A DNA stretch of 58,468 bases. Source: an uncultured Pelagibacteraceae bacterium (lineage in GTDB: Bacteria > Pseudomonadota > Alphaproteobacteria > Pelagibacterales > Pelagibacteraceae). Position numbers and translations under genes: made by a program. This document shows, piece by piece, positions 48,804 to 58,468 of this stretch. The stretch's first letter is position 1. The number at the start of each line of letters is the position of its first letter. The stretch covers positions 1-58,468 of the forward strand of contig CABYXQ010000001.1 of the NCBI GenBank assembly GCA_902522915.1, read 5' to 3'. A model generated the notes under the pieces. It had not been told where the DNA came from. It saw only the letters and a list, made by a program, of their open reading frames with translations, and did no database searches.

Positions 48804-50588
48804 TTAAGAGTTTAATGAAGGTTGCTTCTTCATATCATCCCTGTTTATACCGGCAACTCTAACTGGTTTCTTCATCGCATCTCTTCTAAATGGTTCGCCA
48901 AGTTCTTGATTTAAAATTACTTCTATAAAAGTTGTAATTCCATTTTTCTGGTCTTCACAAGATTGTTTAATAGCATTAGTAGTTTCTTCCATAGTTTTAA
49001 CTGTAACACCTTTTAAACCACAAGCATCAGCAACTTTTGCGTAACTTAATTCCGGGTCAAGCTCTGTTCCTACAAAATTGTCATCAAACCATAGAATTGA
49101 GTTTCTTTTTTCAGCACCCCATTGATAGTTTCTAAAAATAACCATTGTAATTGAGGGCCATTCTTTTCTTGCACATGAACTCATCTCATTCATGCTAATA
49201 CCAAAAGCTCCATCTCCTGCAAAGCCAATTACTGGAGTATCCGGGCAGCCTATTTTTGCTCCCAAAATAGATGGAAATCCATAACCGCATGGACCAAATA
49301 ATCCTGGTGCTAAATATTTTCTACCTTTTTCAAATGTTGGATAAGCATTTCCAATCGCACAATTGTTTCCAATATCACTAGAAATAATTACATCCTCAGG
49401 CATTCCAGCTTGTATTGCTCGCCAAGCTTGTCTTGGGGACATTCTATCTGAATCTCTTTCTCTTGCTTCTTTATTCCAAACTGTACCTTCATCATCTTCT
49501 TCATGATCAAGACTTGATAACTTCTGTAACCAAGCTGATTTTGTTTGATGAATTATGTCTTTTCTTTTTTGTCTATCAGTATCACCTGCTGTTGGAGAAA
49601 GTTGGGCTAAAAGTTGTTGAGATACTAATTTAGCATCACCGCATATCCCAACTGTAACCTTTTTAGTTAATCCTATTCGATCTGAATTCATGTCTACTTG
49701 AATAATACTTGCATCTTTTGGCCAGTAATCCATTCCATATCCAGGTAAAGTTGAAAATGGATTTAATCTAGTGCCTAAAGCTAAGACTACATCAGCTTTT
49801 TGAATTAATTCCATTCCAGCTTTTGAACCATTATAACCTAGTGGACCAGCTGCCAATGGATGACTGCCAGGAAAACTATCGTTATGTTGATAACCAGAGC
49901 ATACTGGTGCATCAAGTTTCTCTGCAAGTTTTTTACAATCATCTATTGCACCCCCAATCACAACCCCTGCTCCAGACAAAATAACTGGAAATTTTGCATC
50001 AGATAATAATTGAGCAGCTTTTTTAACAGCATCTACTCCACCCGCTTGTCTTTCTAATCTAACAATAGGAGGAAGATCAATATCAATTACTTGTGTCCAA
50101 TAATCTCTTGGTACATTTATTTGAGCAGGCGCTGATCCTCTAATTGCTTTTTCTATAACTCTATTTAAAACTTCTGCCATTCTTGATGGATCTCTGACTT
50201 CTTCTTGATAACAAACCATGTCCTTAAATAAATTCATTTGTTCAACTTCTTGGAAGCCACCTTGACCCATAGTTTTATTTGCCGCTTGAGGTGTAACTAA
50301 TAAGAGTGGCGTATGATTCCAGTAAGCAGTTTTTATTGGCGTAACTAGTCCGGTTATACCTGGTCCATTTTGGGCTATTACCATTGACATTTTACCGGTT
50401 GCTCTTGTATAGCCATCAGCAATTAACCCACCATTAGTCTCATGAGCAACATCCCAGAAAGTAATTCCTGCATCAGGAAAAATATCTGAAATAGGCATAA
50501 AAGCTGAACCAATAATTCCAAATGCATGTTCAATTCCATGCATTTGTAAAACTTTAACAAAAGCTTCTTCTGTCGTCATTTTTGTCAT
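48804..50588 (-). CDS. xsc: Sulfoacetaldehyde acetyltransferase (ThDP-dependent)
   Basis: MTTEEAFVKVLQMHGIEHAFGIIGSAF N-terminus, SSDIGNNCAIGNAYP, GDGAFG...NYQWGAEKRN, ELGEPFRRDAMKKP. Confidence 0.95.
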   Translation of the reverse strand: MTKMTTEEAFVKVLQMHGIEHAFGIIGSAFMPISDIFPDAGITFWDVAHETNGGLIADGYTRATGKMSMVIAQNGPGITGLVTPIKTAYWNHTPLLLVTPQAANKTMGQGGFQEVEQMNLFKDMVCYQEEVRDPSRMAEVLNRVIEKAIRGSAPAQINVPRDYWTQVIDIDLPPIVRLERQAGGVDAVKKAAQLLSDAKFPVILSGAGVVIGGAIDDCKKLAEKLDAPVCSGYQHNDSFPGSHPLAAGPLGYNGSKAGMELIQKADVVLALGTRLNPFSTLPGYGMDYWPKDASIIQVDMNSDRIGLTKKVTVGICGDAKLVSQQLLAQLSPTAGDTDRQKRKDIIHQTKSAWLQKLSSLDHEEDDEGTVWNKEARERDSDRMSPRQAWRAIQAGMPEDVIISSDIGNNCAIGNAYPTFEKGRKYLAPGLFGPCGYGFPSILGAKIGCPDTPVIGFAGDGAFGISMNEMSSCARKEWPSITMVIFRNYQWGAEKRNSILWFDDNFVGTELDPELSYAKVADACGLKGVTVKTMEETTNAIKQSCEDQKNGITTFIEVILNQELGEPFRRDAMKKPVRVAGINRDDMKKQPSLNS

Positions 50589-50711: not shown

Positions 50712-50996
50712 ATGGCTACTGATATCATAATTCACGATAAAAAAGACAACGTTGGAGTAGTTGTTATTGAAAAAATTAACCCAAAACAAGACTGCGCATG
50801 CTGGATAATGGAGGATGATAGTTCTACAAATATTCAATCAATGGATGAAATCCCTCTTGGACACAAAATCGCAATGATTGATTTAAATGAAGGAGATACA
50901 ATTCTTAAATATGGTCACGATATAGGTAAAGTTGTTAAATCTATAAAAAAGGGTGAACATGTTCATGTTCACAATGTTAAAACAAAGAAGTGGTAA
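50712..50996 (+). CDS. suyA: (2R)-sulfolactate sulfo-lyase small subunit (UxaA N-terminal SAF domain)
   Basis: HD..DNVGVVV, IPLGHKIA, KYGHDIG, GEHVHVHNVKTKKW; split UxaA-type pair next to xsc. Confidence 0.8.
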   Translation: MATDIIIHDKKDNVGVVVIEKINPKQDCACWIMEDDSSTNIQSMDEIPLGHKIAMIDLNEGDTILKYGHDIGKVVKSIKKGEHVHVHNVKTKKW

Positions 50997-50999
50997 AAA

Positions 51000-52166
51000 A
51001 TGGAAATTCCAAAAAGTTTTTTAGGTTATAAAAGAGAAAATGGAAGAGCTGGCACTAGAAATCATGTAATAATTCTTCCTGTTGATGATATATCAAATGC
51101 TTGCGCTGAAGCTGTGGCAAATAATATTAAAGGAACAATAGCCCTTCCACATTCATATGGAAGACTTCAATTTGGTGCAGATTTAGAGCTTCATTTTAGA
51201 ACTATGATTGGAACTGGTTGTAACCCAAATGTTGCAGCTGTAATTGTTATTGGTATTGAACCTAAATGGACTAAAAAAATAGTCGATGGAATTGCAGAAA
51301 CTGGAAAACCTGTTGAAGGTTTTCATATAGAACGTACTGGGGACATTGGTACAACTATGAAGGCATCCAAAAAAGCTCAAGATTTTGTTATGTGGGCTTC
51401 TGAAAAACAACGAGAAGAATGCCCTATAAGTGATCTATGGATATCAGTTAAATGTGGAGAGTCTGATACGACCTCTGGTTTAGCTGCAAATCCAACTGTA
51501 GGTAATTTAATGGATAAATTAGAACCTATGGGTGTTCATTTATGTTTTGGTGAAACATCAGAGTTAACTGGCGCTGAAAATGTTTGTGCGACAAGAGGAG
51601 CAACAAAAGAGGCATCAGATAAATTTATGAAAACTTGGAATGCTTATAATGATTTTATATTAAAAGAAGCAACTGATGATCTTTCTGAAAGTCAACCAAC
51701 AGCAGGGAATATTGCTGGTGGTTTAACCACAATTGAAGAAAAAGCTTTTGGAAACTTCCAAAAAATTGGAAGCTGTAAATTTATTGATGTACTTGAGCCA
51801 GCAGAGGAACCAACTAAAGGAAAAGGTTTATACTTTATGGATACTTCTTCAGCTGCAGCAGAGTGTGTAACATTACAAGCTGCAGCAGGATTTAATATTC
51901 ACTTATTTCCAACAGGTCAGGGTAACATTGTTGGTAACCCAATTGAACCAGTGGTAAAATTGACTGCGAACCCTTTAACTGTTAAAGGAATGGGTGAGCA
52001 TATTGATTGTGATGTTTCAAAAATTCTTTCTAGAGAAATGAATTTGTCTGAAGCAGGAGATGAGCTAATTAAAACTACTCTTAGAGTTGCTAACGGAAGA
52101 CTTACTTGTGCAGAAGCTTTAGGTCATAAAGAATTTGTTATGACCAAACTATATAGAAGCGCTTAA
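51000..52166 (+). CDS. suyB: (2R)-sulfolactate sulfo-lyase large subunit (UxaA family)
   Basis: [77 protein letters not shown]. Confidence 0.82.
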
Positions 52167-52183
52167 TATTCATTTATATTATT

Positions 52184-53257
52184 ATGTATTTTAAAAAATA
52201 CTTGGTAATAATACCAGGGATAATTCTTGCATTTGTGTTTTATACACTTTCTCAGGGATTTAATAGCATTGTTGGAATTGAACTTTTGGGTTACGTAAAA
52301 AGCCCAATTTCTACTGCCATGATCGCTATTTTATTTGGAATGTTTTTTGGAAATATATTTCAAATGAGAAAAAGTTTTAAAACAGGAATAAATTTTACTC
52401 AAAATTATATTTTAAAACTTGGAATAATTTGCTTGGGTATTCAATTAAAACCATTTGAATTTTTAGAATTTGGAACTATCGCTATTCCTTTAATCATCAT
52501 ATGTATCATAAGTGTACTTGTGGTAATAAAAATTTTAATTAGACAATTTAAAATTTCAACAAGAATGGCATATCTAATATCTATTGGCAGTACAGTATGT
52601 GGAACAACAGCAATTATGGCTACATCACCAGTTATAGGTGCAAAAAAAAATGAAATATCATATGCAATTGCGAACATTACTTTATTTGGAATTTTATCAA
52701 TGCTTATCTACCCCTATTTTGCTAATTATTATTTTAATGGGGAGTCTTTGTATGTTGGTTTATTTTTAGGAACTTCCATTCATGAAACTTCGCAAGTTGC
52801 TGCCGCAGGTCTTATATACGATCAGCAATTTAATAGTCCAGAAACAATGAATGTTGCCACAGTTACGAAATTAATAAGAAATACCTTTTTAATTATAATG
52901 ATCCCACTTTTTTCTTTTCTTTACAACAGAGGTAAAGCTAGTAATAAAAACTATTCCATATTTTCTATTTTTCCTTATTTTGTATTAGGTTTTGTTTTAA
53001 TGATAATGTTAAGAAATTTAGGAGATCATTTTTTTTTAAACATAAATAATGAAATTTGGCTAAATATAGTAGAAAATATAAAAAGTTTATCAAAAATTTT
53101 TTTAACTATGGCGATGGCTGCTATTGGTTTATCCACTAATCTTAAGGAACTCAAAAATATGGGTTACAGACCATTTATTGTTGGATTTATTGCTATGACA
53201 ACAGTTGGTTTTGTAAGTATTTTAACTATAGAAATATATATTAATTTTTTAAATTAA
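52184..53257 (+). CDS. YeiH/PSE-family putative sulfate/sulfite exporter (SuyZ/TauZ-like)
   Basis: LKLGIICLG, G.TVCG.TAI.A, G.FLGTSIHETSQVAAAG, ATVTKL.RN, MAMAAIGL.T; directly after suyB. Confidence 0.85.
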   Translation: MYFKKYLVIIPGIILAFVFYTLSQGFNSIVGIELLGYVKSPISTAMIAILFGMFFGNIFQMRKSFKTGINFTQNYILKLGIICLGIQLKPFEFLEFGTIAIPLIIICIISVLVVIKILIRQFKISTRMAYLISIGSTVCGTTAIMATSPVIGAKKNEISYAIANITLFGILSMLIYPYFANYYFNGESLYVGLFLGTSIHETSQVAAAGLIYDQQFNSPETMNVATVTKLIRNTFLIIMIPLFSFLYNRGKASNKNYSIFSIFPYFVLGFVLMIMLRNLGDHFFLNINNEIWLNIVENIKSLSKIFLTMAMAAIGLSTNLKELKNMGYRPFIVGFIAMTTVGFVSILTIEIYINFLN

Positions 53258-54333
53258 GATTTTACTAACAATTTTTTTTTTAAATTTGAGACAAATCTTC
53301 TAATAAAAGCAGCCGCAACTCCTAAAAAAATAGCAAACATAATTGTAAACAATCCATAAAAAAATGGCATTTCATTAGAAAATTGTTGAATAAATAATGA
53401 AAAAAAATTTAATTCTACGTCTTGAGCTTTCACTGTTCCATTTAAAATTTCTTCTGCAAAAAAAGTATCGTAAGCTATAGCTATGCCAACAATAAGCAAA
53501 AGAATTGCTAATAAAGCTCTTAATCCAGAACTATCAATTTTTTCACCCAATTTTTGTCCAACTTGAACACCTATAATTGATCCAACGACTAACATAAAAA
53601 CTAGCATTAAATCAATTGATCCATAATTAAATGAATGTAAAAAAGTAACTATGACGCTTACAAATATAGTTACAAAAAGAGAGGTTCCTGGAACTAATTT
53701 TGTTGGCATTTTAATAATATAAATCATCGCTGGTACCAAAATAAATGCACCGCCAATGCCCATTATTGCTGCAATAAAACCAACAACTAAACCTATAATA
53801 ATTGGAGTGAATGCACTTTCATATAATTTAGATTTTGGGAAACGCATTCGAAAAGGAAGGCCGTGTATCCAATAATGAACGTGTAATTTTTTTTTTTCTA
53901 CAAGATTTCTTTTTGCTTTATCAATTTCACCAAGACTTTCTACTAACATTAAAGTACCGATGATCGCTAAAATATACATATAAGCTAAAGATATAACTGT
54001 ATCTATTTTACCTATTCCTTTAAAATATGTGAATGTATAAATACCTAAACTTGTTCCAACAATGCCTCCTATTACAATCATTAGACCCATCTTGTAGTCT
54101 AGTGTATTTTTTAAATAATGAGTTGTAGATCCAGACACAGATGTAGCTAAAATATTGTTAGCTTCATTTGCAACAGCATACGCTGGAGGCACCCCTAAAA
54201 AAATTAAAAATGGTGTCATCAAAAAACCACCGCCAACACCAAATAAACCTGATAACACTCCAACTATTGCACTTAACAAAAGTATCTCAATGGGATTAAC
54301 AAAAACGTGCGCTATTGGTAAAAATACATCCAT
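53254..54333 (-). CDS. TauE/SafE-family sulfite exporter
   Basis: Duplicated GVLSGLFGVGGGFLMTP / GFIAAIMGIGGAFILVP motifs, GTSLF. Confidence 0.88.
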   Translation of the reverse strand: MDVFLPIAHVFVNPIEILLLSAIVGVLSGLFGVGGGFLMTPFLIFLGVPPAYAVANEANNILATSVSGSTTHYLKNTLDYKMGLMIVIGGIVGTSLGIYTFTYFKGIGKIDTVISLAYMYILAIIGTLMLVESLGEIDKAKRNLVEKKKLHVHYWIHGLPFRMRFPKSKLYESAFTPIIIGLVVGFIAAIMGIGGAFILVPAMIYIIKMPTKLVPGTSLFVTIFVSVIVTFLHSFNYGSIDLMLVFMLVVGSIIGVQVGQKLGEKIDSSGLRALLAILLLIVGIAIAYDTFFAEEILNGTVKAQDVELNFFSLFIQQFSNEMPFFYGLFTIMFAIFLGVAAAFIRRFVSNLKKKLLVKS

Positions 54334-54363
54334 AATTAATTAAATATGCTGTTTAAAAACAAC

Positions 54364-54498
54364 TTAGTTAAATGTGATAAAAGTTCCAACTAAAATAACT
54401 CCCCAATAAGCAGTTAGACTTAAAATTATTCCAGTTTTAATAAATTTAGTTTTGATATTTAAGAATTTATTTAAAATTTTTATGTTAGAAAATAGCAT
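54364..54498 (-). CDS. Small single-helix membrane protein (44 aa), hypothetical
   Basis: Hand translation MLFSNIKILNKFLNIKTKFIKTGIILSLTAYWGVILVGTFITFN; promoter-like sequence immediately upstream. Confidence 0.5.
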   Translation of the reverse strand: MLFSNIKILNKFLNIKTKFIKTGIILSLTAYWGVILVGTFITFN

Positions 54499-54506
54499 TT
54501 AGACCG

Positions 54507-54534
54507 TGAATACACCCAGAGCGTGATTTGTCAA
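54507..54534 (-). promoter_or_regulatory. Sigma70-like promoter for the small ORF / tauE unit
   Basis: Minus strand TTGACA-N16-TATTCA, ending 8 nt before the ATG at 54498. Confidence 0.45.
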
Positions 54535-54565
54535 ATAAATATTTGATTTTCGATGATTTTTTTTG

Positions 54566-54916
54566 TTAGTAAATTGTAGCACCAAAAACTTTAACTACAT
54601 CGTCCTCAACACCTAAAACAAGTCTACCAAGAAACTCTCCTGAAATTTCTTTGTTAGTTTGCTTTATTAATACAGTGATATGAATACCTCTTCTTAGACA
54701 ACCAAAAGGTTCGAATGTCTCATTTAAATTAGTAATAATTTTGTTATTTGCCCATTGTTTTCCTAGCTCGACTTCATTAGCACCAAAAAGCATTTGTGTT
54801 GAAAAATCTTTAGTAAATCCACCATAATCCTTAAGATTTGATGATCTAACTAAATTATCCCAAATAGGTTTAGCAATTTCAAATATCTCATCGTCAGTTT
54901 TTGACAAAATATCCAT
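54566..54916 (-). CDS. Hypothetical protein (116 aa) directly downstream of aprA
   Basis: Clean ORF starting 18 nt after the aprA stop, same strand; no motif recognised. Confidence 0.75.
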   Translation of the reverse strand: MDILSKTDDEIFEIAKPIWDNLVRSSNLKDYGGFTKDFSTQMLFGANEVELGKQWANNKIITNLNETFEPFGCLRRGIHITVLIKQTNKEISGEFLGRLVLGVEDDVVKVFGATIY

Positions 54917-54934
54917 ATTATTTAATTAAATATT

Positions 54935-56794
54935 TTAAGATGCTTTTTTCTTCTCGTTCTCATCCACGATATGGTATACAGGAACTTTCTCCATACTAAA
55001 TTTACCAGTTTTAGGATCTCTCCTTGAAACTGTTAAACAATGCCAATTGTCATCATCTAGTTTCATGTGATCTCCTCTATAATAATATCCTGGCCATCTA
55101 GTTTCTTCTCTAAACATCGTATGTTCAGTTACACATTGTGAGGTCAAAGCTCTATGCTTTAATTCCCAAGCTCTCATTAGTTGATGATAATCTTCTGCCC
55201 CAACATTCTCTAAATCCTCTTCTAACCAAGCTAAAAGCTCTAATCCTCTTTTAAGCATGTTAGCATTCGTCATATAATTTGTGGCTATTCCACCCACATA
55301 TTCATCCATAATTCTTTGTAAACGCTGCAATCCTTGAATAGGAGAAATATAGCTAGGGGAGACTGTCCCACCAGTAATTTCATTTTGAGCAACAGTGTAT
55401 GTTTCGAGAGGTTTATAAACCTTCGTTTTAAAATCCTCACACTGCTTATCAGATACTTTTAGACCTTCAGCTTTATTATCTTCAATATATTTAACTGCAG
55501 CTTTTGCAGCCAATCTACCTTCCGTGAAAGAACCTGATGAAAATTTATGTGCACTTCCACCTACAGTGTCACCGGCACCAAATAATCCATCAACAGTAAG
55601 CATTCTATTATAGCCCCAAAAGTATTCTGGTGGAGATAAATCTTCAGGTCCACTAACCCAGGCCCCAGAACATGTTGCATGAGAACCCATAACATATGGT
55701 TCAGATGTAGTTAACTCTGGGTTCGTATATTTTGGATCAATATTTTGAGAAGCCCAAACTACAGCTTGACCTACTGTCATACCTAAAAAATTTTCCCATC
55801 CAACAGTTTCTAAATGAGGGTCTTGGAAAGCTTCAGTTGTAACCATGTGAATAGGTCCACCGCCTGCCATTGTTTCTTGAATAAATGCATGATTTCTTAG
55901 ACAAGTAGGTGTTGGATGATGATCTATATATTCACCAACCAACTCTTTCGTTTGATTATACCATTTTTTTTCATAATTCTCGCCGTTAGCATTCTGGGTA
56001 TAAGTTTTTAAATGTAAAAAATATGCACCAACTGGACCGTATCCATCTTTAAATCTACACAAAACTATTCTGTTTTCCATTTGAGTCATTTTTGCACCAG
56101 CTGCAATCGGTAATGCATAAGCTGAGCCGTTGCTCCAAGGAGCATACCAGGTTCTACCCATCCCTTCTCCAACAGCTCTAGGTTTAAATATATGAGAAGC
56201 TCCACCTGCAGCAACTATTACTGCTTTTGCTCTAAAAACATGAAAATCACCTGTTCTCATGTTAAATCCTACAGCTCCACCAACTCTATTCTCTTTTTCT
56301 TCATCCATTAAAAGATGTGTTATCATAATTCTGTTATAAATTTTATCCGCCGATTTTTTTGCAGCTTCTGCGACTATAGGTTTGTAACTTTCGCCATGAA
56401 TCATTATTTGCCACTTACCTTCTCTTAGATATCTTCCTGTTTCTTCGTTTTTCATCATTGGAAGGCCCCACTCGTCAAACATATGAACTGTTGAATCAAC
56501 ATGACGTGCCATATCATACCCTAAATCTTCTCTAACCATTCCCATCAAATCGTTTCTAGCATATCTTACATGGTCTTCAGGTTGATTCTCATTCCACTGC
56601 ATTCCCATATAGCAATTAATAGCATAAAGACCTTGAGCTACAGCTCCACTTCTATCAATATTAGCTTTCTCAACACAAATAATTTTCATATCTCTACCCC
56701 AATGGCGAGCTTCAAAAGTTGCACCTGTACCCGCCATACCACCACCAACAACTAATATATCGCAATCTTCGTAATGAGTTTTGTGCTTAGCCAT
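54935..56794 (-). CDS. aprA: Adenylylsulfate (APS) reductase alpha subunit
   Basis: VGGGMAG, RSGAVAQGLYAINCY, WQIMIHGESYK, RFKDGYGPVGAYF, HKFSSGSFTEGR, FREETRWPGYYYR. Confidence 0.97.
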   Translation of the reverse strand: MAKHKTHYEDCDILVVGGGMAGTGATFEARHWGRDMKIICVEKANIDRSGAVAQGLYAINCYMGMQWNENQPEDHVRYARNDLMGMVREDLGYDMARHVDSTVHMFDEWGLPMMKNEETGRYLREGKWQIMIHGESYKPIVAEAAKKSADKIYNRIMITHLLMDEEKENRVGGAVGFNMRTGDFHVFRAKAVIVAAGGASHIFKPRAVGEGMGRTWYAPWSNGSAYALPIAAGAKMTQMENRIVLCRFKDGYGPVGAYFLHLKTYTQNANGENYEKKWYNQTKELVGEYIDHHPTPTCLRNHAFIQETMAGGGPIHMVTTEAFQDPHLETVGWENFLGMTVGQAVVWASQNIDPKYTNPELTTSEPYVMGSHATCSGAWVSGPEDLSPPEYFWGYNRMLTVDGLFGAGDTVGGSAHKFSSGSFTEGRLAAKAAVKYIEDNKAEGLKVSDKQCEDFKTKVYKPLETYTVAQNEITGGTVSPSYISPIQGLQRLQRIMDEYVGGIATNYMTNANMLKRGLELLAWLEEDLENVGAEDYHQLMRAWELKHRALTSQCVTEHTMFREETRWPGYYYRGDHMKLDDDNWHCLTVSRRDPKTGKFSMEKVPVYHIVDENEKKKAS

Positions 56795-57264
56795 TAATAG
56801 TAAACTCCTTTTTTAAATGATTCTTTTGGAACTGCAGGTAATTCACCATCTATATTAAGACCTTCGGGTTCAGTATATAATCTTTGAGAATTTAATTCTC
56901 CTTGTTTTACTTTTTCACCATCAGCAAGTTTTGGAATAAATTTACCCCAAGGTTTAGTTGTAATTGGTGAAACAAAATCCTTGGTTGTTCCATTTCTAAA
57001 TTTTATTTTCCAAGAGATAGTACCTTTTTCTTCTTCTCTTCTTACTCTTACACTATGACCCATAGGTGCAAAATCTGCATATCCTCTAACATCAATTGCA
57101 TGATTTGGGCAGGCTTTCACACATGAATAACATTCCCAACAAAAATTTGGTTCAATATTTTTTGCACGTCTAATATTTTCATCAATGTGCATAATGTCTG
57201 AAGGGCAAATATCTACGCAATGACCACAGCCATCACATCTAGTCATGTATACAAAAGTTGACAT
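56794..57264 (-). CDS. aprB: Adenylylsulfate reductase beta subunit
   Basis: CDGCGHCVDICP and CWECYSCVKACP 4Fe-4S motifs, VRGYADF. Confidence 0.97.
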   Translation of the reverse strand: MSTFVYMTRCDGCGHCVDICPSDIMHIDENIRRAKNIEPNFCWECYSCVKACPNHAIDVRGYADFAPMGHSVRVRREEEKGTISWKIKFRNGTTKDFVSPITTKPWGKFIPKLADGEKVKQGELNSQRLYTEPEGLNIDGELPAVPKESFKKGVYY

Positions 57265-57294
57265 ATTTATTTTTCTCCTTTTTTTATTATCATA

Positions 57295-58089
57295 TTAATA
57301 ATGTTTTGGCTCTTCTCTTTTTATGCCTAAGCCAAATTGCTCAGGTGCATCTGCTGGAGGTGGTAGATTATCTCTTGATCCATCAGCTTCAGCTAAATTC
57401 TTTTGAATGGCAGCACCTGGTTTATAAAACATATGAGCAAATTTTGACCAATATACTCCACCAAATAAAATTAAGTTAGATGCCACAAATAAAGTTAAGA
57501 ATAAATATGCTAGACCCATTTGACCATTAAATTGAGTATAAGACCAAGCTAGGCCAAAAGTTGCACAAGCAAGTAACGCTAATACAAATAAATCCGCTTT
57601 AATTATTCTATACCATGGGTGAGCTTCTGCAGAAACATCAACTCTTAAAAAAAACCAAAACCAGTAACCGCCAATACATGTTAGAACAGCACCAACATGC
57701 CAAAGTATTGACCAGATAGATGATGAAGACTTGTCAGCACCTGTATAACAAAAAACTAACATTGCTGAAGATACCCAAAATATAATTGTTCCGTACATTC
57801 CTAATACATGAGCTAATCTTCTTTTTCCAAAACCAAGCTCTGACGTTGTGCCAATATCATAAACAGTAGTCTTTGCAATAATTGATGCTCTCTCACCTAA
57901 TCCAATATCCCTAGTTGCCTGAAGTTTAGCTTTTTTAGCATTATTTAAAAAGTACGTTAGATTCTTGTGGCTGATCATTTGAATTATTGTACCAAGTGCA
58001 ATCAACACAACCATTGCAATTATGAAGCTTTGCATTGCAATTGGTTGGACAGTTTCTGCTAATATAGAAAATGGATTAGTTTCAAACAT
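57295..58089 (-). CDS. aprM: APS reductase membrane anchor
   Basis: Multi-TM protein directly upstream of aprB; RRLAHVLGMYG, FWFFLRVDV, WSKFAHMFYKP. Confidence 0.9.
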   Translation of the reverse strand: MFETNPFSILAETVQPIAMQSFIIAMVVLIALGTIIQMISHKNLTYFLNNAKKAKLQATRDIGLGERASIIAKTTVYDIGTTSELGFGKRRLAHVLGMYGTIIFWVSSAMLVFCYTGADKSSSSIWSILWHVGAVLTCIGGYWFWFFLRVDVSAEAHPWYRIIKADLFVLALLACATFGLAWSYTQFNGQMGLAYLFLTLFVASNLILFGGVYWSKFAHMFYKPGAAIQKNLAEADGSRDNLPPPADAPEQFGLGIKREEPKHY

Positions 58090-58200
58090 TATACCCTTAT
58101 GTTAAATCTTTTTTAAATATTTTGAAAGTTTTCTAATCTAGTTAATTCTTTAGTTCAACATAAACTATTGGTCATTTTGTCATTAATCACACCTTATAAT

Positions 58201-58468
58201 TTATAATTTTCGTTTGTAATGTTGTTTTTTTGGAATTACAGCTCTAACTCCTCCCTGAGGATTCTCAACATCACCTTCTCTTCTGGGAATCAGGTGAATA
58301 TGGCAATGCATAATTGATTGTCCAGATACTTTACCGATATTAGTTCCTATATTAAAAGCTACAATGCTTTTGTCTTTATTTTTAACTTCTTGCTTAATAA
58401 TTTTAATTAAATCATTACAAGCTATTAATTCCTCATTAGTTAATTCAAAATAATCACTTAAATGTCTT
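58201..58468 (-). CDS. HIT-family nucleotide hydrolase/transferase (5' end runs off the window)
   Basis: Hand translation ...RHLSDYFELTNEE...FNIGTNIGKVSGQSIMHCHIHLIPRREGDVENPQGGVRAVIPKKQHY; histidine triad HCHIH; not in ORF track. Confidence 0.9.
   Translation of the reverse strand, partial: RHLSDYFELTNEELIACNDLIKIIKQEVKNKDKSIVAFNIGTNIGKVSGQSIMHCHIHLIPRREGDVENPQGGVRAVIPKKQHYKRKL

Follow-up and report, generated by a model that had tools for sequence, protein, structure and literature searches.

The closest described counterparts of the locus reported here are the sat-aprMBA loci of lineage-I sulfur oxidizers (Allochromatium vinosum type; PMC2211403), with which it shares the gene order aprM-aprB-aprA and a trailing 116-aa gene. 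The adenosine 5'-phosphosulfate (APS) that APS reductase (Apr) forms from sulfite and AMP leaves via ATP sulfurylase (Sat) or APS:phosphate adenylyltransferase (APAT), as described in PMC8551704. In SAR11 sat is reported to be missing and AprBA has been proposed to detoxify sulfite, aprAB being among the core genes with the strongest purifying selection (PMC5069961, PMC12636525). The available text of both papers leaves the APS-removing enzyme unnamed, and the available part of a preprint (10.64898/2026.04.03.716430) lists only aprA-aprB; the sat gene of one SAR11 strain has been placed in a hypervariable region (PMC3448164). The window analyzed here is a stretch of 58,468 nucleotides from an uncultured Pelagibacteraceae bacterium (contig CABYXQ010000001.1). 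It is the entire contig C1 of a 1.01-Mb SAR11 genome that is 73% complete. At its end a gene of the histidine triad (HIT) family stands next to aprM, and an earlier note on this DNA read it as occupying the slot of sat and discharging APS in its stead.

The HIT locus is real and conserved, and its interpretation as a Sat substitute is partly supported. Judged from the sequences, the gap left by Sat would be better filled by a second gene of the same genome, which encodes a small nucleotidyltransferase. The reading preferred here, put forward tentatively as plausible but short of probable, is that this nucleotidyltransferase is the main Sat-like exit for APS and the HIT protein an accessory enzyme that would clear surplus APS, both being candidates. 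Among the papers listed in a literature search outside the subscription journals, none proposes either protein for APS removal in SAR11. Tested directly in the present analysis were a promoter-like element of aprM, the arrangement in genus g8, genomes that lack HIT, and an association with lineage-I Apr in a distant class. The central features are:

58201-58467, minus strand: final 88 codons of the HIT-family gene, truncated at the 5' end by the contig boundary, with the HxHxH motif at 58282-58308.
58134-58181, minus strand: promoter-like element of aprM, TTGACC-N17-TATAAA with an overlapping imperfect GTTGAA-N7-TTCAAC palindrome, recognized by conservation and of putative function.
57295-58089, minus strand: aprM, membrane anchor of lineage-I APS reductase, from its position and its identity to the gene preceding aprB in sulfur oxidizers.
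56794-57264, minus strand: aprB, APS reductase beta subunit, TIGR02060 at 183.5 bits (cut-off 135.65).
54935-56794, minus strand: aprA, APS reductase alpha subunit, TIGR02061 at 989.5 bits (cut-off 641.75).
G000:C48:2611-2985: small nucleotidyltransferase, 124 aa, matching PF01467 only and not PF01747.

The HIT open reading frame (ORF) is open at its 5' end, encodes the motif HCHIHLIPR, has a translation that includes GQSIMHCHIHLIPRR, and matches PF01230 at 34.4 bits (cut-off 21.5). Because the window is the whole contig and the gene is cut at its end, about 44 codons are missing; full-length orthologues are mostly 131-132 aa (70 of 80). The placement given in the earlier note, about 110 bp upstream of aprM on the same strand, is correct, the gap to the aprM start (58089) being 111 bp. 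Along the minus strand the order is the cut HIT ORF, the 111-bp gap, aprM, aprB, aprA, a 116-aa gene and tauE, with xsc and a suyAB-like pair just beyond tauE. In a GTDB locus scan made up largely of close SAR11 relatives, aprM directly follows HIT in 80 of 80 loci; the adjacency therefore is not a matter of chance, and the proposed linkage holds across relatives. HIT is directly preceded by pabC in all 74 informative loci (the other six end at a contig edge), within a run metC-MFS-pabB-pabA-pabC. Median gaps are 3 nt between pabC and HIT and 101 nt between HIT and aprM.

The gap between HIT and aprM carries the conserved TTGACC-N17-TATAAA element and its overlapping palindrome. A matrix built from 78 of the 80 relatives scores 52.7 at the window site, the next best site in the genome reaching 11.0, and a weaker copy precedes aprM in four of five HIT-less loci. 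The element was defined by this conservation and not by a generic promoter and terminator scan, which performed at chance level (13 found, 18.4 expected) and gave no terminator. Given the close coupling of HIT to pabC (median gap 3 nt) and the promoter-like site conserved ahead of aprM, HIT most likely closes the pab unit while aprM has its own promoter, as far as sequence can tell; the suggestion that HIT opens the apr unit was not upheld. Four metatranscriptome runs compared with positions 54300-58468 consisted of assembled contigs only, a form of data unfit for ranking genes or demonstrating a transcript; none of the listed contigs bridged the gap. The palindrome overlies the -10 part of the promoter-like site, is a possible operator, and has a single strong copy in the genome. 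In G157 the HIT-aprM interval holds an insertion (L103:8101-11140) with genes for a metallo-beta-lactamase-fold protein, a sulfur transporter of the YeeE/YedE type and a double rhodanese.

Profile searches of the 73%-complete genome gave no match to PF01747 (Sat), PF01507 (CysD/CysH) or PF01087 (GalT), so that the absence of an ATP sulfurylase, first noticed for the window, extends to all of the available genome with respect to PF01747. Sat was matched in one of 61 relatives and in only five genomes of a distribution panel of 150 genomes of the order, each with a completeness of at least 90%. SAR11 is generally described as possessing apr and lacking the usual sulfate activation genes. The SAR11 Sat loci inspected lie among glycan or sulfation genes, never preceding aprM.

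Within the same panel the HIT subfamily occurs in 108 of 122 aprM-positive and in none of 28 aprM-negative genomes, and it is kept in 38 of 38 single-contig Pelagibacter genomes. Retention of the gene by apr-negative relatives without linkage would have told against the earlier note; outside SAR11 the wider HIT subfamily does occur at sites unlinked to apr. Six of the 28 aprM-negative genomes are Pelagibacter drafts. Apr-negative Pelagibacter failed as a test of co-loss: they are read as assembly gaps, because pabC is missing as well in all five tested and aprA lies at a contig end in one. In genus g8 the gene follows suyA-suyB as the last of a run facing the end of the apr cluster (aprA-orf116-tauE) in four of five loci. 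It was found in 0 of 24 genomes of family f2, 17 of which carry aprM without Sat, and is absent from the inspected loci of Pelagibacter G022, G027, G112, G165 and G184, and of G145, all with apr kept. The sole member of the subfamily in G184 is an island fusion elsewhere, and the copy of G016 is broken. In total, the locus is without HIT in 23 apr-positive, Sat-less genomes, of which 21 carry the small nucleotidyltransferase; a minimal HIT-AprM-AprB-AprA module replacing Sat is not supported. The anticorrelation predicted between HIT and Sat was not seen either, as all five Sat-positive SAR11 genomes retain HIT and a look-alike occurs in Sat-positive genomes of another class. The unpublished genome G115 (aprM and nucleotidyltransferase present, HIT absent) is a single row in these tallies, and no conclusion depends on it.

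On contig C48 an APS-kinase-like gene overlaps the gene of the 124-aa HIGH-type nucleotidyltransferase (G000:C48:2199-2985), the pair being divergent from metF-like and gcvT-like genes. A sat gene elsewhere in the genome would have told against the earlier note; canonical sat was not found by the profile searches, whereas this gene is a non-canonical Sat candidate, and together with the kinase gene a candidate PAPS maker. Of the 122 aprM-positive genomes 116 have it, with each of the four apr-positive genera represented; searches of genera g3, g5, g6, g7 and g10 did not find it. Family f2 has it in the same 17 of 24 genomes as aprM, beside the apr locus, where it and the APS-kinase-like gene converge on aprA-orf116. 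In g8 a 126-aa nucleotidyltransferase lies about 50 bp upstream of aprM in five of five loci, and the APS-kinase-like partner was not found in any of the five genomes. The copies are 84-96% identical to that of this genome and are more conserved than HIT. Among non-SAR11 aprM genomes tested, five of five have Sat and none has the small nucleotidyltransferase. In the island cassettes of G014 and G164, and more loosely in G195 and G182, it is flanked by APS kinase on one side and a pyruvate-kinase-like gene on the other, with a TauE gene alongside; Sat takes its cassette position in G051 and precedes the same pyruvate-kinase-like gene in G107. Among long representatives 39 of 42 are fusions with the kinase. 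In 74 of 78 viral loci the two are fused or adjacent, and a sulfotransferase-like family is nearby in 28 of 80. Its model has the HIGH fold (CoaD and NadM at Z of about 11). A comparison with the NadM profile gave 28.3 bits against a cut-off of 127, the protein measuring 124 aa against 175, and CoaD-like and NadD-like genes (named from their N-termini) are separate from it in the four complete or near-complete genomes tested. The small nucleotidyltransferase is more likely than not an ATP sulfurylase.

Several side observations concern the same gene. Glycan islands (L100, L123, L124, L046, L129), several of them beside an rRNA operon, repeatedly carry a cassette in which TauE, APS kinase and the pyruvate-kinase-like gene accompany either Sat or the small nucleotidyltransferase. 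In the single-contig genome G068 the match is in two pieces (G068:C1:283931-284301), from a frameshift or a sequencing error, and short contigs of G184 that resemble phage DNA encode proteins longer than 760 aa that include a nucleotidyltransferase-like segment (L130:3340-6243, L131:3026-5317). In G122 (L099) the interval from the nucleotidyltransferase to tauE cleanly lacks aprM-aprB-aprA-orf116, and the region retrieved contained no suyAB, xsc or HIT; the sulfonate block appears to have been lost. In g8 (L094, L095, L096, L097) a CADD-type gene that passes TIGR04305 replaces pabB-pabA-pabC of Pelagibacter, so that the place of a folate-precursor gene is kept and is followed by a small adenylyl-handling enzyme.

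The HIT protein belongs to its superfamily by motif and fold: the three histidines of the triad are invariant in 22 rows, and a structure predicted for an orthologue (pLDDT 79) has known HIT structures as matches (E 1e-8). It is closest to a mycobacterial Ap4A phosphorylase (template modeling (TM) score 0.71-0.74), followed by zinc HITs and Fhit, the latter (0.63-0.69) lying near several bacterial HITs and having a profile E of 9e-12, similar to Hint. No curated subfamily cut-off is passed by the full orthologue, which scored 47.3 bits with NF052622 (Ap4A phosphorylase; cut-off 290) and 24.7 bits with NF007965 (HinT; cut-off 206).

A sample of 400 genomes of the phylum, in which at most 10 candidates per genome were scored, contained the HIT subfamily in 11, aprM in seven and both in five genomes, four of the five falling in one small class. 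Among 43 genomes of this distant class, a stand-alone HIT is present in four of six with lineage-I AprA and in one of 37 others (Fisher p 6e-4, uncorrected for kinship and habitat), and is unlinked to apr. Three of these four genomes with HIT and lineage-I AprA were tested for Sat and all three were positive. The start motif [PF]NNPC was found only in Pelagibacter and distant-class HITs (14 of 45 rows). These findings favor an Apr-related accessory role over a replacement of Sat. A single clade of g1 and g8 HITs was not rejected by the approximately unbiased (AU) test (p 0.28).

In the scheme that follows from the preferred reading, Xsc and the SuyAB-like pair, whose genes are observed and whose chemistry is established, would release sulfite, and AprBA with AprM would combine sulfite and AMP to APS, in the direction proposed in PMC5069961. 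From its gene context, the small nucleotidyltransferase may convert APS and pyrophosphate to ATP and sulfate. The middle histidine of HIT would accept the adenylyl group and transfer it to water, yielding AMP, or to phosphate, yielding ADP, and would in this way free AMP for Apr. HIT was probably tamed from mobile HNH-HIT genes, and would be useful enough for retention in nearly all Pelagibacter, yet dispensable, given the 23 apr-positive, Sat-less genomes without it at the locus.

A number of observations weigh against this reading. HIT is coupled to pabC (median gap 3 nt) and drifts like its pab neighbors, mean identities being 0.75 for HIT, 0.76 for pabA, 0.65 for pabC and 0.96 for aprA (150 pairs, 58 loci). 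Its nearest kin are island genes fused to or standing beside HNH nucleases and restriction-modification genes. The genomes are kin, so the co-occurrence counts stand for few events or clades. One genome with the distant-class HIT (G241) has no aprA, and the association in that class may come from habitat or kinship. The trees neither show nor reject one clade of apr-linked HITs: a tree constrained to unite g1 and distant-class HITs was 4.65 log-likelihood units better under one model and 13.6 worse under another (AU p 0.21). The small nucleotidyltransferase stands nearer to NadM and CoaD than to Sat, with which hhalign aligns it at a probability of 40% over the N-terminal part only. It persists without aprA in G122 and G154, lies away from apr in Pelagibacter, and is split from aprM in g8 by the same kind of promoter-like site (read by eye). 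It was not found in six of the 122 aprM-positive genomes, all multi-contig and with loci not checked, and neither candidate is seen in G022 (55% complete) and G165 (95%, a 30-contig draft). Sat chains were not among the matches listed in two fold searches of the nucleotidyltransferase model, which is no exclusion.

The alternative that survives best, although we regard it as somewhat unlikely, is that HIT has nothing to do with sulfur. It would be what is left of a mobile HNH-HIT defense gene that came to rest at the end of the pab run, and would break down dinucleoside polyphosphates or AMP adducts in a general cleaning role; the link to apr would reflect inherited gene order. The coupling to pabC, together with the promoter-like site that persists ahead of aprM in HIT-less genomes, suits this explanation, as do the additional island copies in or beside HNH and restriction-modification genes. 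A 331-aa HNH-HIT fusion fills the core slot between pabC and aprM in G020 (L041:7459-8454) and G194 (L110:7456-8451) and is sister to the Pelagibacter HIT clade (support 98/96). In 80 metagenome loci no HIT relative outside SAR11 adjoins apr, and family f2 is without the gene (0 of 24). Against this alternative stand its retention in 38 of 38 single-contig Pelagibacter genomes despite streamlining, its place beside apr at a second position in g8, the failure to find it in any of 28 aprM-negative genomes, and the look-alike that tracks lineage-I Apr, unlinked, in another class.

That HIT itself is the main APS exit of Pelagibacter, in line with the earlier note, yielding AMP or ADP and sulfate while the kinase and the nucleotidyltransferase only make 3'-phosphoadenosine 5'-phosphosulfate (PAPS) for sulfation, appears unlikely. 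It would account for the direct adjacency to aprM in 80 of 80 loci, for a nearest fold that is a HIT phosphorylase, and for the nucleotidyltransferase gene of Pelagibacter lying apart from apr and, in the manner of PAPS makers, in partnership with an APS-kinase-like gene; four drafts with aprM and HIT (G114, G148, G151, G179) show no nucleotidyltransferase. Against it stand the loss of HIT at the locus with apr kept in G022, G027, G112, G165, G184, G145 and all 17 apr-positive f2 genomes, the lack of anticorrelation with Sat, and a nucleotidyltransferase that is more conserved and in g8 stands alone before aprM. It is very unlikely that neither protein is dedicated, with APS cleared by promiscuous housekeeping enzymes (the HinT-type protein of contig C9, or CysQ with the APS-kinase-like enzyme) or with an Apr direction that needs no exit. 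The genome does have two other HIT-domain genes and a CysQ-like gene, and G165 shows neither candidate; but G165 is a 30-contig draft, and whereas housekeeping HITs occur with or without apr, the two candidates track apr from genus to genus.

The features that adjoin the central ones in the window are:

54566-54916, minus strand: unnamed 116-aa gene after aprA, of conserved position, with no Pfam or NCBIfam match.
53254-54333, minus strand: TauE/SafE-family exporter (PF01925).
52184-53257, plus strand: YeiH-family putative exporter (PF03601; TIGR00698 under its cut-off).
50712-52166, plus strand: UxaA-like gene pair (PF04295 and PF20629), read from its context as sulfolactate sulfo-lyase suyA-suyB.
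48804-50588, minus strand: xsc, sulfoacetaldehyde acetyltransferase, a sulfite source (TIGR03457 at 964.8 bits, cut-off 676.4).

The gene aprM has no profile model of its own and was named by position and by 45-50% identity to the gene before aprB in sulfur-oxidizer loci. SuyAB has been described as core or near core in SAR11 (PMC12636525). The 116-aa gene directly follows aprA in 16 of 16 SAR11 and six of seven non-SAR11 loci; the closest named look-alikes of its product, DUF4019, DUF4864 and DUF3887, all score below 0.9 and serve as a lead only. Its presence at Sat-positive loci as well led to its rejection as a substitute for Sat. The HinT-type protein of contig C9 has 122 aa.

At stake is whether SAR11 would gain ATP or ADP from sulfonate sulfur or recycle AMP only, and two small soluble candidates for APS removal are now available. 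A bolder proposal, which we consider improbable, is that SAR11 sulfite oxidation is closed by two undescribed small enzymes, a 124-aa ATP sulfurylase on a NadM-like scaffold and an ADP sulfurylase of the HIT type (132 aa), the latter from a clade that accompanies lineage-I Apr in more than one class. If this were true, both enzymes would let these bacteria, the most abundant in the ocean, draw substrate-level phosphorylation from organosulfonate sulfur, and genome surveys scoring 'no Sat' would overlook a new family of ATP sulfurylases that phages commonly carry as well.

In comparison with known HIT proteins, the SAR11 protein most resembles Rv2613c (PDB 3ANO, 3WO5), an HxHxH-type HIT and the best structural match of the orthologue model, from which it differs by an identity of 28-29%, a shorter length and a C-terminal GGVRxVI...Y tail. 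For Rv2613c the HxHxH-type motif can support phosphorolysis (PMC7705103), and an APS activity was not found in the literature search. With Fhit, Hint4 and DcpS it shares the HIT fold; these are eukaryotic, with promiscuous side activities and no link to sulfite oxidation shown, and Fhit is 22-27% identical to it. Arabidopsis Hint4 and C. elegans DcpS reportedly both hydrolyze and phosphorolyze APS. That some HIT enzymes hydrolyze APS, as the earlier note had stated, is confirmed for Fhit, which yields AMP and sulfate (PMC4613722). APAT, formerly ADP sulfurylase, carries the GalT-type HxHxQ, whereas the SAR11 HIT has HxHxH, in the window HCHIH. The characterized APAT of Thiobacillus is GalT-like and about three times longer than the SAR11 HIT. 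What APAT has in common with HIT is the reaction proposed for the ADP route of the latter (PMC8551704), and HxHxQ is the motif by which GalT-type enzymes are defined (PMC7705103). Mobile winged-helix/HNH-HIT and other island HITs are 50-64% identical to the SAR11 HIT and have a common C-terminal signature, one fusion type occupying the same slot (G020, G194), but the Pelagibacter HIT is stand-alone, fixed in the core genome and begins with [PF]NNPC.

The small nucleotidyltransferase appears to resemble Sat (PF01747) and Sat-CysC in its HIGH-type adenylyltransferase fold, and it shares with them an APS-kinase-like partner and an interchangeable cassette position. It differs from Sat in its length of 117-131 aa, in having no PUA-like domain, and in its motifs, GRxQPxHxGH and GRxVGY against QxRNPxHxxH and GRDHAG; NadM is its nearest relative by sequence, and CoaD and NadM are nearest by fold. 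At the level of the locus, sat precedes aprM in G258 and G528 and follows the cluster in G271, whereas the SAR11 locus is without sat and retains aprM-aprB-aprA on one strand. In place of sat, the gene upstream of aprM is HIT in Pelagibacter and in g8 the one for the 126-aa nucleotidyltransferase; both close a run of folate-precursor genes (pabBAC and CADD, respectively) ahead of the aprM promoter-like site.

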